Source: Escherichia coli (GTDB lineage: Bacteria; Pseudomonadota; Gammaproteobacteria; Enterobacterales; Enterobacteriaceae). From it: a DNA stretch of 64,000 bases. The notes below the pieces were generated by a model that did not search any database, was not told where the DNA came from, and saw only the letters and a program-made list of their open reading frames with translations. Positions 5,462 through 36,415 of this stretch are shown here, piece after piece. The stretch's first letter is position 1, and each line of letters starts with the position of its first letter. The stretch lies in the NCBI RefSeq assembly GCF_003334765.1, contig NZ_QOWT01000011.1. One strand, written 5' to 3'. The translations under genes and the position numbers were made by a program.

Positions 5462-7798
5462 ATGAAGCAAATTCGTCTGCTGGCGCAGTATTATGTTGAC
5501 CTGATGATGAAGTTAGGTCTGGTGCGCTTCTCAATGTTGCTGGCGCTGGCCCTCGTCGTTCTTGCCATTGTGGTACAAATGGCGGTAACCATGGTGCTGC
5601 ATGGTCAGGTCGAAAGCATTGATGTTATTCGTTCTATCTTCTTTGGTTTGCTGATTACGCCGTGGGCGGTCTACTTTCTATCGGTGGTCGTCGAGCAACT
5701 GGAGGAGTCACGACAACGTCTGTCACGGCTGGTGCAAAAACTGGAGGAGATGCGCGAGCGCGATTTGAGCCTCAACGTTCAGTTAAAAGATAATATTGCC
5801 CAGCTAAATCAGGAAATTGCCGTTCGTGAAAAAGCGGAAGCAGAACTGCAGGAAACCTTCGGCCAACTGAAAATTGAAATCAAAGAGCGCGAAGAGACAC
5901 AAATTCAGCTCGAGCAGCAATCCTCATTCTTACGTTCCTTCCTTGATGCTTCACCCGACCTGGTTTTTTATCGTAACGAAGATAAAGAGTTTTCCGGCTG
6001 TAACCGCGCGATGGAGCTGCTGACCGGAAAAAGCGAAAAACAACTGGTTCACCTGAAACCTGCTGATGTTTACTCACCGGAAGCCGCCGCAAAAGTCATT
6101 GAAACCGATGAAAAAGTGTTCCGTCATAATGTGTCACTGACCTATGAACAGTGGCTGGATTACCCGGATGGGCGCAAAGCCTGCTTTGAAATCCGTAAAG
6201 TGCCGTACTACGACCGCGTGGGTAAACGTCACGGTTTGATGGGCTTTGGTCGCGACATTACCGAGCGTAAGCGGTATCAGGATGCGCTTGAACGGGCCAG
6301 CCGCGACAAAACGACGTTTATCTCCACCATCAGTCACGAATTGCGTACACCGCTGAACGGTATCGTCGGTCTGAGCCGCATTCTGCTGGATACCGAACTC
6401 ACCGCCGAGCAGGAAAAATATCTCAAGACCATCCATGTTTCGGCCGTCACGCTGGGGAATATCTTTAACGATATTATCGACATGGATAAGATGGAACGGC
6501 GCAAGGTCCAGCTTGATAATCAACCGGTTGATTTCACCAGCTTCCTTGCCGATCTGGAAAATCTCTCCGCATTGCAGGCGCAACAAAAAGGATTGCGCTT
6601 TAACCTGGAGCCGACGCTGCCATTACCGCATCAGGTCATTACCGACGGGACGCGTTTACGGCAGATCCTGTGGAACCTCATCAGTAACGCCGTCAAATTC
6701 ACCCAGCAAGGCCAGGTTACCGTGCGCGTGCGCTACGATGAAGGCGATATGCTGCATTTTGAAGTGGAAGACTCTGGTATCGGCATTCCGCAGGATGAGC
6801 TGGATAAAATTTTCGCCATGTATTACCAGGTGAAAGACAGTCATGGCGGTAAACCTGCCACCGGCACCGGTATTGGTCTGGCCGTTTCTCGTCGTCTGGC
6901 GAAAAATATGGGCGGCGATATTACGGTTACCAGCGAACAGGGCAAAGGTTCAACCTTTACGTTGACGATCCACGCACCGTCGGTAGCAGAAGAGGTCGAT
7001 GATGCGTTTGATGAAGACGATATGCCTTTACCGGCGCTGAATGTGCTGCTGGTGGAAGACATTGAACTGAACGTGATTGTTGCGCGTTCTGTGCTGGAAA
7101 AATTAGGTAACAGCGTTGATGTCGCCATGACCGGCAAGGCGGCGCTGGAGATGTTTAAACCGGGCGAATACGACCTGGTGTTGCTGGATATTCAGTTGCC
7201 AGATATGACCGGGCTGGATATCTCTCGTGAACTGACGAAACGTTATCCGCGCGAGGATTTACCGCCGCTGGTGGCCTTAACCGCTAACGTGCTGAAAGAC
7301 AAACAAGAGTACCTCAATGCTGGAATGGATGATGTGCTGAGTAAGCCGCTTTCTGTTCCGGCGCTAACCGCGATGATCAAGAAATTCTGGGATACCCAGG
7401 ATGATGAGGAGAGTACGATGACGACAGAAGAGAACAGTAAATCAGAAGCATTGCTCGATATTCCCATGCTGGAACAGTATCTCGAACTTGTAGGACCGAA
7501 GCTGATCACCGACGGGTTAGCGGTGTTTGAGAAGATGATGCCGGGCTATGTCAGCGTGCTGGAGTCGAATCTGACGGCGCAGGATAAAAAAGGCATTGTT
7601 GAGGAAGGACATAAAATTAAAGGTGCGGCGGGGTCAGTGGGGTTACGCCATCTGCAACAGCTGGGTCAGCAAATTCAGTCTCCTGACCTTCCGGCCTGGG
7701 AAGATAACGTCGGTGAATGGATTGAAGAGATGAAAGAAGAGTGGCGTCACGACGTAGAAGTGCTGAAAGCGTGGGTGGCAAAAGCCACTAAAAAATGA
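5462..7798 (+). CDS. arcB: Aerobic respiration control sensor histidine kinase ArcB (778 aa)
   Basis: Full-length ORF; H-box ISHELRTPLNG, receiver and HPt domains; matches ArcB. Confidence 0.95.
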   Translation: MKQIRLLAQYYVDLMMKLGLVRFSMLLALALVVLAIVVQMAVTMVLHGQVESIDVIRSIFFGLLITPWAVYFLSVVVEQLEESRQRLSRLVQKLEEMRERDLSLNVQLKDNIAQLNQEIAVREKAEAELQETFGQLKIEIKEREETQIQLEQQSSFLRSFLDASPDLVFYRNEDKEFSGCNRAMELLTGKSEKQLVHLKPADVYSPEAAAKVIETDEKVFRHNVSLTYEQWLDYPDGRKACFEIRKVPYYDRVGKRHGLMGFGRDITERKRYQDALERASRDKTTFISTISHELRTPLNGIVGLSRILLDTELTAEQEKYLKTIHVSAVTLGNIFNDIIDMDKMERRKVQLDNQPVDFTSFLADLENLSALQAQQKGLRFNLEPTLPLPHQVITDGTRLRQILWNLISNAVKFTQQGQVTVRVRYDEGDMLHFEVEDSGIGIPQDELDKIFAMYYQVKDSHGGKPATGTGIGLAVSRRLAKNMGGDITVTSEQGKGSTFTLTIHAPSVAEEVDDAFDEDDMPLPALNVLLVEDIELNVIVARSVLEKLGNSVDVAMTGKAALEMFKPGEYDLVLLDIQLPDMTGLDISRELTKRYPREDLPPLVALTANVLKDKQEYLNAGMDDVLSKPLSVPALTAMIKKFWDTQDDEESTMTTEENSKSEALLDIPMLEQYLELVGPKLITDGLAVFEKMMPGYVSVLESNLTAQDKKGIVEEGHKIKGAAGSVGLRHLQQLGQQIQSPDLPAWEDNVGEWIEEMKEEWRHDVEVLKAWVAKATKK

Positions 7799-7910
7799 CC
7801 CCGGCTAGACCGGGGTGCGCGAATACTGCGCCAACACCAGGGAAATCTTGGCTGCGCCGTAAATTATTATGATGAGTTACAAGGGCACAGCACTGTTTTT
7901 CAGGCCGCAC
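7790..7910 (-). ncRNA. arcZ: ArcZ small RNA (SraH/RyhA), convergent with arcB
   Basis: Reverse complement reads GTGCGGCCTGAAAAACAGTGCTGTGCCC...GCGCACCCCGGTCTAGCCGGGGTCATTTTTT; terminator hairpin plus U-run overlaps the arcB stop codon (7796-7798). Confidence 0.8.
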
Positions 7911-8027
7911 GCAGTTAAGATAGCAAAACTTAAATGATTTGTTACATGAATCAGTTAAATGTGTGATGCGTACCATTTTTATTAAAAAAATTAATGTGTT
8001 TCAGTCAATTGCGAAAGGATGATCACA

Positions 8028-8681
8028 ATGAAGAAAATTGGCGTAATTCTGAGCGGATGCGGCGTCTATGACGGTTCTGAAATTCATGAAGCGGTGTTGA
8101 CGTTGTTAGCTATTTCACGCAGCGGTGCGCAGGCGGTCTGCTTTGCACCGGATAAGCAGCAGGTTGATGTTATCAACCATTTAACTGGCGAAGCGATGAC
8201 GGAAACGCGCAATGTGCTGATTGAAGCGGCACGAATAACGCGCGGTGAAATCCGTCCTCTGGCCCAGGCCGATGCCGCTGAACTGGATGCGTTGATTGTG
8301 CCGGGGGGGTTTGGCGCGGCGAAGAATTTAAGCAATTTTGCCAGTCTTGGTAGCGAATGCACCGTTGACCGTGAATTAAAGGCGCTGGCACAAGCGATGC
8401 ATCAGGCCGGAAAACCGCTTGGTTTTATGTGTATTGCCCCGGCGATGCTGCCGAAAATTTTCGATTTCCCGCTGCGTTTGACCATCGGTACTGATATCGA
8501 TACCGCAGAAGTGCTGGAAGAGATGGGCGCGGAGCATGTGCCGTGTCCTGTCGATGATATCGTGGTTGATGAAGACAATAAGATTGTCACCACCCCAGCA
8601 TATATGCTGGCGCAGAACATTGCAGAAGCGGCGAGCGGCATTGATAAGCTGGTTTCCCGCGTGCTGGTTCTGGCTGAATGA
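8028..8681 (+). CDS. elbB: Glyoxalase/DJ-1-like protein ElbB (217 aa)
   Basis: ORF 8019-8681; product from [23 protein letters not shown]... Confidence 0.85.
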
Positions 8682-29524: not shown

Positions 29525-29643
29525 AATCTCGCGCTAACAACCTGGAATCGAGCCGTCATACTACGGCGCAACGCCCTATAAAGTAAACGATGACCCTTCG
29601 GGAACTTCAGGGTAAAATGACTATCAAAATGTGAATTGTAGCT

Positions 29644-29678
29644 GACCTGGGACTTGTACCCGGGTCGGTATTTTTTTG
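29644..29678 (+). terminator. Leader terminator/attenuator in the greA 5' region (GraL-type)
   Basis: GACCTGGGACTTGTACCCGGGTC hairpin then GGTATTTTTTT about 95 nt upstream of the greA ATG. Confidence 0.45.
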
Positions 29679-36328: not shown

Positions 36329-36415
36329 GCCGAGGTGGTGGAATTGGTAGACACGCTACCTTGAGGTGGTAGTGCCCAATAGGGCTTACGGGTTCAAGTC
36401 CCGTCCTCGGTACCA
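36329..36415 (+). tRNA. leuU: tRNA-Leu (anticodon GAG), co-transcribed with secG
   Basis: GCCGAGGTGGTGGAATTGGTAGACACGCTACCTTGAGGTGGTAG...CCTCGGTACCA; long variable arm, anticodon loop TTGAGGT, encoded CCA. Confidence 0.9.

Follow-up and report, generated by a model that had tools for sequence, protein, structure and literature searches.

The small RNA gene arcZ and its convergent neighbor arcB on a segment of the Escherichia coli chromosome

The window, i.e., the whole 64,000-nt stretch of E. coli DNA that was analyzed, carries on its plus strand an open reading frame (ORF) encoding ArcB. Its product matched the NCBIfam equivalog model NF008302 over the full length (1482.9 bits, cut-off 838) and corresponds to K-12 b3210. 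Convergent with arcB on the minus strand lies the small RNA gene arcZ, and elbB was placed on the other side of arcZ from arcB by a profile match and the K-12 annotation. The features of the locus are as follows:

5462..7798, plus strand: arcB coding sequence, 778 aa, convergent partner of arcZ.
7790..7910, minus strand: arcZ gene, 121-nt primary transcript, with the TSS at 7910 and the 3' end at 7790 (annotated) or 7791 (Term-seq).
7790..7798, both strands: overlap of the two genes, UCAUUUUUU (ArcZ 3' tail) on the minus strand and AAA AAA TGA (Lys-Lys-stop) on the plus strand.
7799..7815, minus strand: Rho-independent terminator hairpin of ArcZ, CCCCGG-UCUAG-CCGGGG (terminator scan, fold and covariation).
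7817..7831, minus strand: small internal hairpin in the ArcZ 3' half, GCGC-AGUAUUC-GCGC (Rfam consensus structure and predicted fold).
7827..7842, minus strand: core CCCUGGUGUUGGCGCA, target-pairing region, RNA positions 69-84 (PMC11331407).
7791..7846, minus strand: processed 56-nt ArcZ, the active Hfq-bound form (predicted position and cleavage rule of PMC11331407).
7851..7891, minus strand: 5' stem-loop of full-length ArcZ (Rfam structure line).
7917..7945, minus strand: putative sigma-70 promoter of arcZ (from the annotated TSS and conservation).
7937..7966 (-56..-27), minus strand: conserved upstream block CACACATTTAACTGATTCATGTAACAAATC, a candidate regulator site (conservation profile).

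Read from the window sequence, the minus strand from 7910 to 7790 is a 121-nt segment, GUGCGG...CCCCGGUCUAGCCGGGGUCAUUUUUU. The covariance model of Rfam family RF00081 matched this strand at 7910-7803 through all of its positions (1-106 of 106) with a score of 120.8 bits (E = 4.1e-27; gathering score 66), which is far beyond chance. An initial annotation of this DNA had identified the minus strand past arcB as ArcZ and proposed alignment to the annotated gene as a check. When compared with K-12 arcZ (b4450; NC_000913.3, 3350577..3350697), the window was 100% identical over 291 nt, which include the promoter, the flanks and all 121 nt of the gene. Across the 64,000 positions of the window, 12 differ from MG1655, none of them within 7740-8030. 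The arcZ locus was found in 5417 of 5426 complete E. coli genomes, with at least 99% identity in 5364 of these. In addition, the ArcZ 3' end mapped by Term-seq at MG1655 3350696(+) (Adams 2021, supplementary file 1) corresponds to window position 7791, inside the U-run. A mechanical 62-aa ORF at 7788-7976 on the minus strand, which begins ahead of the arcZ TSS and continues through the sRNA, was treated as spurious. The window also has the K-12 neighbors of ArcZ (SraH/RyhA), i.e., arcB convergent and elbB divergent, as well as the annotated overlap and the terminator, and zero differences from K-12 were found in the region. Taken together, the data confirm that the segment is the E. coli arcZ sRNA gene, real and correctly identified; no counter-evidence bears on its identity, and the weaknesses concern the mechanism of coupling to arcB alone.

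The primary ArcZ transcript is cut by RNase E at AG/AUU (the slash marks the cut) to yield a 56-nt 3' fragment; the core is required for this single cut, and in the fragment it is single-stranded and pairs with rpoS (activation), flhDC, mutS and other mRNAs (PMC11331407). The K-12 and Salmonella literature describes a transcript that is made in aerobic and stationary-phase conditions and bound by Hfq via its 3' end. In the window, a putative RNase E site AG/AUU falls between 7847 and 7846 (RNA positions 64 and 65), ahead of the core, and fits the RN/WUU consensus. Cleavage there would give a predicted form of ~56 nt; counted from this site, exactly 56 nt remain up to the 3' end mapped by Term-seq. 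The architecture of an Hfq-dependent sRNA, i.e., a Rho-independent terminator with a 3' oligo-U tail, is also present. The transcript of ~120 nt and the shorter processed 3' fragment that the initial annotation had foreseen correspond to the published 121-nt and 56-nt forms. Given the sequence identity to K-12, ArcZ expression, Hfq binding and processing are very likely in this organism as well.

In the Rfam structure, the 5' stem of full-length ArcZ is formed by GCUGUGCC (7884-7891) paired with GGCGCAGC (7851-7858). Mean identity to E. coli across 117 loci was 0.42 for positions 1-64, as compared with 0.90 for positions 65-121, and this greater conservation of the 3' half is in keeping with activity residing in the 3' fragment. 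The core was invariant in 111 aligned sequences, although this invariance is partly imposed by the search pattern, which fixed the bases of both the internal hairpin and the core.

By scanning positions 7600-8100, we obtained a single terminator-like site, on the minus strand, with a stem of eight pairs (7816-7798), six of them G-C, and the tail CATTTTTTAG. A terminal hairpin was also part of the predicted fold of ArcZ. In the alignment with other species, compensatory changes (GC to or from AU, CG to or from UA) were observed at three stem pairs, and 98.3% of cells in the stem were paired versus at most 43.8% when the partners were slid. The hairpin quoted in the initial annotation, CCCCGGTCTAGCCGGGG, is the plus-strand sequence of 7799-7815 and had been described as sitting directly on the arcB stop codon. 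It does adjoin that codon, but its G-C stem starts one base after the TGA at 7796-7798, and the stop codon is contacted solely by an optional A-U closing pair that lengthens the hairpin to 7798/7816. The ArcZ tail covers this stop codon together with the two Lys codons that end arcB. Since the U-tail at 7790-7795 is the complement of these lysine codons, the two genes as annotated share 9 nt, or 8 nt when the Term-seq 3' end is used, with perfect complementarity. K-12 arcB is similarly annotated at 3350689..3353025, overlapping arcZ. Thus, the two genes are convergent and their transcripts antisense at the 3' ends, as had been proposed.

The proposal that ArcZ and arcB share this terminator was, however, not supported. 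Like known bidirectional intrinsic terminators, the hairpin has a palindromic G-C stem between convergent units and an A-run on one side. Were it a true bidirectional terminator ending both transcripts, their overlap would be approximately the hairpin, about 25-35 nt. The stem is a nearly perfect palindrome that folds equally well in arcB-sense RNA, it is preceded on the plus strand by the run AAAAAA (7790-7795), as in such terminators, and no other convincing plus-strand terminator is present from 7816 to the elbB start. Unlike bidirectional intrinsic terminators, however, this one has a U-tract in the ArcZ direction only. Beyond the hairpin, the plus strand reads UGCGCGAAUAC, and beyond the stem UGCGCGAAUACUGCGCC (stem flank TGCGCGAATAC), none of which provides a U-tract, and the first T-run of at least four on this strand is at 7896. 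This flank is G/C-rich and, being the complement of the conserved GCGCACC segment of ArcZ, cannot turn U-rich. The scan called no plus-strand terminator across 7600-8100, and the curated MG1655 Term-seq lists include the 3' end of ArcZ but give none for the arcB strand from 3349181 to 3350696. We therefore consider it improbable that the hairpin ends both RNAs, and regard it as a one-directional terminator for ArcZ and not as a canonical shared one. Another candidate arcB terminator at ~7851-7900, consisting of GCUGCGCC, a 25-nt loop, GGCACAGC and then ACUGUUUUUC, was rejected, as it has one mismatch and a large loop and was not called by the scan. Expression of arcB may be too weak for the curation thresholds of the Term-seq lists. 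An ArcZ-only terminator role is a modest addition.

Upstream of the TSS, a putative promoter was placed by hand, with a -35 element GTAACA (7940-7945), a 17-nt spacer and an extended -10 element TGcTATCTT (7917-7925), the TG and TAT..T columns of which are conserved in 117 loci. A generic sigma-70 scan called no promoter within 7600-8100, because the match here is only 8/12. Regarding control by ArcA, a review states that ArcA binds the arcZ promoter (PMC11331407); Park 2013 reported no ArcA ChIP site there. In the arcZ upstream region, we found no match of at least 11/16 to the 16-nt ArcA direct-repeat consensus, and three matches with up to two mismatches to the 10-nt ArcA box, as compared with 2.0 +/- 1.6 in shuffled sequences. 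The conserved block holds one 8/10 ArcA-box-like match (-43..-52), in an AT-rich spacer, and such matches occur at chance frequency. Given that the direct repeat is absent and the box matches are at chance level, no ArcA site is claimed at arcZ, and direct binding of ArcA to this promoter is doubtful.

As cited in PMC11331407, PMC4152358, PMC3937726 and PMC4281340, Mandin & Gottesman 2010 reported that ArcB/ArcA represses arcZ and that ArcZ lowers arcB mRNA, resulting in mutual repression. According to these four sources, arcB mRNA is destabilized by ArcZ and ArcZ is lowered by arcB mRNA, and they credit the same study with an effect that depends on complementarity; it reportedly broke the pairing and restored the effect by compensatory mutation. 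The statement in the initial annotation that coupling of ArcZ and arcB expression had been reported is borne out to this extent. With respect to mechanism, full-length arcB mRNA must hold at least 7791-7798, and probably has a 3' UTR that enters the arcZ region. ArcZ would then be perfectly complementary to the arcB mRNA 3' end, and might promote the decay of this mRNA by acting as a cis-encoded antisense RNA. The arcB mRNA may in turn act on ArcZ; an antisense role for arcB mRNA is speculation by the review's own word (PMC11331407). GadY/gadX and McaS/abgR are similar E. coli pairs, in each of which the sRNA is encoded convergently with a protein gene and complements the mRNA of that gene at its 3' end or UTR (PMC4281340). 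GadY, however, stabilizes gadX mRNA, and abgR is unaffected by McaS (PMC4281340), whereas ArcZ is reported to destabilize arcB mRNA. ArcZ further differs in acting chiefly in trans, as an Hfq sRNA whose many targets are distant. We are highly confident in the explanation as a whole, i.e., that the segment is arcZ, convergent with arcB and ended by a terminator of its own, with a reported mutual repression that would act through cis-antisense pairing.

Among other species, arcB was convergent and immediately downstream of arcZ in 119 of 120 loci. The arcB stop abuts the ArcZ terminator stem in 88 of 118 loci, these being the other Enterobacterales species in which both the stop codon and the stem could be scored, and exact abutment is retained in distant genera, e.g., Yersinia, Photorhabdus, Proteus, Serratia and Dickeya. 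This count is a modest addition to the known arrangement. The stem and the stop are separated by 164-193 nt in Pectobacterium, and by 5-24 nt in Pantoea, Tatumella, Rosenbergiella and Mixta; a separation in P. carotovorum has likewise been noted (PMC11331407). Since all of these retain ArcZ, the overlap is not needed by ArcZ. Six loci gave negative distances between stop and stem. By inspection, the ArcB ORF reads on in four of them, namely L097 (Serratia sp. M24T3), L108 (Biostraticola tofi), L070 (Pantoea sp. 1.19) and L118 (a MAG). Of the other two, L026 was a tblastn artefact, the real stop being 9 nt earlier, and L008 (-2) reflected only a different calling of its hairpin.

The separated species raise the possibility that the overlap merely results from genome packing and regulates nothing by itself. 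In that case, ArcZ would affect ArcB/ArcA only indirectly or in trans, and the abutment would persist only because the A-run/U-run serves as both Lys-Lys codons and terminator tail. In roughly one quarter of the species sampled, both ArcZ and arcB are retained but lie apart (Pectobacterium and several Erwiniaceae), the mature ends overlap by just 8-9 nt, and the induction of acid resistance by ArcZ is arcB-independent (PMC3937726). Against this, the convergent synteny and the exact abutment extend to distant genera, and the secondary sources, as far as they relate the original work, agree that each RNA lowers the other. On balance, we think it unlikely that the overlap is only such a by-product.

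Coupling might otherwise depend mainly on a fraction of arcZ transcription that passes the terminator and continues for hundreds of nt within arcB, on the antisense strand, before Rho ends it. Transcriptional interference or a long antisense duplex would then be at work in place of the short overlap of the mature 3' ends. An arcZ-strand Rho-termination region has been mapped at MG1655 3351461, antisense to arcB and ~765 nt downstream of the 3' end of ArcZ, where downstream coverage was 20 without and 418 with bicyclomycin (Rho score 15.2, p = 1e-68; Adams 2021, supplementary file 2). This read-through is small, however, with downstream coverage in the absence of bicyclomycin amounting to ~1% of that upstream, and the antisense signal could start at another site inside arcB, the 800-nt windows being too coarse to fix its origin. 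In the literature examined, no link between read-through and regulation was found, and we judge read-through very unlikely to be the main route.

A more speculative proposal, which we consider a long shot, is that the C-terminal Lys-Lys codons of ArcB are fixed as the template of the Hfq-binding U-tail of ArcZ. A one-base change in the homopolymer would affect how ArcZ terminates and, at the same time, carry the ArcB frame on into sequence antisense to ArcZ, as in the four loci that read on, and Rho-limited read-through antisense RNA could carry part of the mutual repression. In the literature examined, no analysis of such a dual-coding constraint or of a part played by Rho-limited read-through was found.

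The tail-to-tail arrangement of arcZ and arcB is thus conserved and already in the literature, with nothing biologically new in it, and the presence of arcZ merely confirms the window as a standard segment of the E. coli chromosome. The arcB overlap belongs to a mutual-repression loop described previously, and through ArcZ, oxygen/redox sensing by ArcB/ArcA is connected in enterobacteria to the general stress sigma factor RpoS as well as to motility, mutagenesis and virulence.

A whole-window Rfam scan matched the full ArcZ model (RF00081; gathering score, 66) at 7910-7803 on the minus strand, with a score of 120.8 bits and E = 4.1e-27. The minus strand from 7910 to 7790 corresponds to a 121-nt RNA with the 3' end CCCCGGUCUAGCCGGGG-UCAUUUUUU, and 291 nt of this strand (window 7740-8030) were 100% identical to the matching stretch of E. 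coli K-12 MG1655, in whose record the ncRNA arcZ (b4450) occupies 3350577..3350697. On the plus strand, the ORF 5462-7798 was identified as ArcB by an end-to-end match to the NCBIfam equivalog NF008302 (1482.9 bits; cut-off, 838), with elbB and mtgA following it. In MG1655, arcB (b3210; 3350689..3353025) also lies on the strand opposite arcZ, and the two annotations overlap by 9 nt. Hence arcZ is a real feature that the initial annotation identified correctly, including its convergence with arcB and the antisense relationship of the two 3' ends. It is also a known one, a textbook sRNA in its textbook position, which the K-12 annotation carries and a 2024 review covers, together with an overlap of roughly 10 nt. 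The features of the locus are as follows:

7917-7945, minus strand: inferred arcZ sigma-70 promoter (-35 GTAACA, 7940-7945; 17-nt spacer; extended -10 TGcTATCTT, 7917-7925)
7910, minus strand: arcZ transcription start (K-12 annotation)
RNA positions 20-27/53-60: long-looped 5' stem of ArcZ (Rfam structure)
7842-7827, minus strand: conserved core CCCUGGUGUUGGCGCA, in the ArcZ 3' fragment
7831-7817, minus strand: small GCGC hairpin, in the 3' fragment
7815-7799, minus strand: ArcZ terminator, in the 3' fragment, followed by the U-tail
7799-7815: palindromic G-C stem, directly after the arcB stop codon
7796-7798, plus strand: arcB stop codon TGA, end of ORF 5462-7798

The whole window matches MG1655 3294487-3358486 (reverse complement) collinearly, differing by 12 substitutions in 64 kb and by no indels. 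Of 5426 complete E. coli genomes, 5417 contained a 351-nt query (window 7700-8050), 5364 of them at 99% identity or more. In nine genomes there was no match, in 54 the match covered less than 80% of the query length, and some carried the query in two places, one such place being on a plasmid.

For the ArcZ start, the review PMC11331407 refers to Argaman (2001) and to transcription-start-site profiling studies. The inferred promoter was not called by a generic promoter scan, because only 8 of 12 positions match. ArcZ is Hfq-dependent and is cleaved by RNase E to a 56-nt form, with the cleavage rule RN↓WUU (PMC11331407). The predicted site AG↓AUU at RNA positions 64/65 (window 7847/7846) fits this rule, and the stretch from 7846 to the ArcZ 3' end mapped by Term-seq in MG1655 (3350696(+), window 7791; Adams, 2021) spans exactly 56 nt, as published for the active form. 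A 62-aa ORF (7788-7976, minus strand; ATG at 7976) spanning the promoter and the whole sRNA looks spurious; its start codon lies upstream of the arcZ transcription start.

At the junction, the plus strand reads ...GCC ACT AAA AAA TGA CCCCGGCTAGACCGGGG TGCGCGAATACTGCGCC... A consensus scan of 7600-8100 returned a single terminator-like site, on the minus strand, with a stem at 7816-7798 (8 pairs, six of them G-C) and the tail CATTTTTTAG. The ArcZ tail UCAUUUUUU covers the arcB stop codon and the two lysine codons before it. The hairpin said to sit directly on the stop codon is thus present at 7799-7815, with its G-C stem adjoining that codon rather than lying on it.

The further proposal that arcB shares this terminator is the one part of the initial annotation that the data did not support. 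Read in the direction of arcB, the stem leads not into a U-tract but into UGCGCGAAUACUGCGCC, which cannot be U-rich because it is the complement of a conserved ArcZ segment; the earliest plus-strand T-run of at least four lies at 7896. The scan of 7600-8100 called no plus-strand terminator, and the curated MG1655 Term-seq lists, which are coordinate-sorted with both strands mixed, hold no arcB-strand 3' end between the ArcZ end and the far-off next positions. The hairpin is also predicted to fold in arcB-sense RNA, where it could stabilise the arcB 3' end once transcription has been terminated by Rho or has run on toward elbB.

On the arcZ strand, supplementary file 2 of Adams (2021) places a strong Rho-termination region at MG1655 3351461 (window ~7026), antisense within arcB and ~765 nt beyond the ArcZ 3' end, with a Rho score of 15.2 and a downstream coverage of 20 without versus 418 with bicyclomycin. 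This bicyclomycin signal hints at Rho-limited read-through antisense to arcB, in which part of transcription may get past the ArcZ terminator and be halted by Rho at that distance into arcB.

An exact-pattern scan with the ArcZ core, using one genome per species, yielded at least 120 Enterobacterales loci, the matches listed including Yersinia, Photorhabdus, Xenorhabdus, Proteus, Providencia, Serratia, Dickeya, Erwinia, Pantoea, Edwardsiella and Hafnia. Among the matches listed, the ArcB C-terminal domain was convergent just downstream of ArcZ in 119/120, the remaining locus having a flank of only 239 nt. The exact layout of the window recurred in 88 of the 118 listed loci scorable for both features; in these, the complement of the arcB stop begins at the last stem base, the overlap is 9-11 nt, and the ArcB Lys-Lys codons are complementary to the U-run. 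Also among the matches listed, the stem-to-stop gap was 5-24 nt in Pantoea, Tatumella, Rosenbergiella, Mixta and a few others, and 164-193 nt in three Pectobacterium species, an exception in keeping with a remark in PMC11331407. In four loci, from Serratia sp. M24T3 (L097), a MAG (L118), Pantoea sp. 1.19 (L070) and Biostraticola tofi (L108), an A/T homopolymer differs in length by one base, so that the usual arcB stop is out of frame. The ORF reads on through the terminator hairpin; it terminates inside the stem-loop region in L070 and L108, and extends into ArcZ antisense sequence in L097 (~19 aa added) and at least as far in L118; these extensions may be real or may reflect homopolymer sequencing errors.

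When 111 distinct 3' halves were aligned, 98.3% of terminator stem cells were paired, versus at most 43.8% with the partners slid. Three stem pairs showed both-sided changes, such as the replacement of G-C by A-U in the Photorhabdus/Proteus group. Averaged over 117 loci, identity with the E. coli base was 0.90 for ArcZ positions 65-121, 0.42 for positions 1-64 and 0.65 for the promoter (-62..-1); the core and small hairpin were fixed by the search pattern, making their invariance partly circular. This distribution of conservation is as would be expected of an ArcZ whose functional RNA is the 3' fragment.

The conserved promoter parts in these 117 loci were the TGnTAT..T element and a block at -56..-27 (window 7937-7966, CACACATTTAACTGATTCATGTAACAAATC), upstream of and overlapping the -35 element, which was conserved above the level of the ArcZ 5' half. 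According to PMC11331407, ArcA-P binds the arcZ promoter; in the ChIP data of Park (2013), no ArcA site is reported upstream of arcZ. The 117-bp arcZ-elbB spacer holds three ArcA-box-like 10-mers, a chance frequency (2.0 +/- 1.6), one of them within the block. This candidate regulator site is not a clear ArcA site. Beyond the spacer, the longest elbB ORF starts at 8019 (+; 220 aa), the K-12 and PGAP annotations start at 8028 (217 aa), and the NCBIfam profile alignment begins at residue 4 of the 220-aa form.

Window ArcB differs from K-12 ArcB at a single residue (window 7418), M653 (STMTTEEN) replacing the V653 of MG1655 and strain E2865. It falls in an acidic stretch, DDEESTVTTEENSK, ~125 residues before the C-terminus; we take this stretch to be an inter-domain linker. 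Another arcB SNP, at 6169, is synonymous. At 40244, the initiator tRNA gene metY (40198-40274, plus strand) has G at its position 47, where MG1655 has A, presumably the known K-12-specific tRNAfMet2 A46 polymorphism; in that case, the window derives from a close non-K-12 relative. The other Rfam matches above gathering score were all at their expected K-12 positions:

47089-47260, minus strand: SraG sRNA
29555-29676, plus strand: greA leader
46745-46859, plus strand: S15 (rpsO) leader
40363-40463, plus strand: rimP leader
45162-45232, plus strand: naRNA4
40198-40271, plus strand: tRNA metY
36329-36412, plus strand: tRNA leuU

Among the targets of ArcZ, rpoS is activated at the level of translation, and flhDC, mutS and others are repressed (PMC11331407, PMC4152358, PMC3937726). 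A reciprocal effect, with arcB mRNA acting as an antisense on ArcZ, is called speculative in PMC11331407. As summarised in PMC4281340, Mandin and Gottesman (2010) found that ArcZ binding to the arcB 3' UTR induces mRNA decay, the bound stretch taking in 6 coding nt ahead of the stop codon; the overlap in the window agrees with the region as summarised there. The coupling of ArcZ and arcB expression invoked by the initial annotation is thus one reported in the literature, in which ArcB/ArcA is described as repressing ArcZ under low oxygen and ArcZ, in turn, as reducing arcB mRNA (PMC11331407, PMC4152358, PMC3937726).
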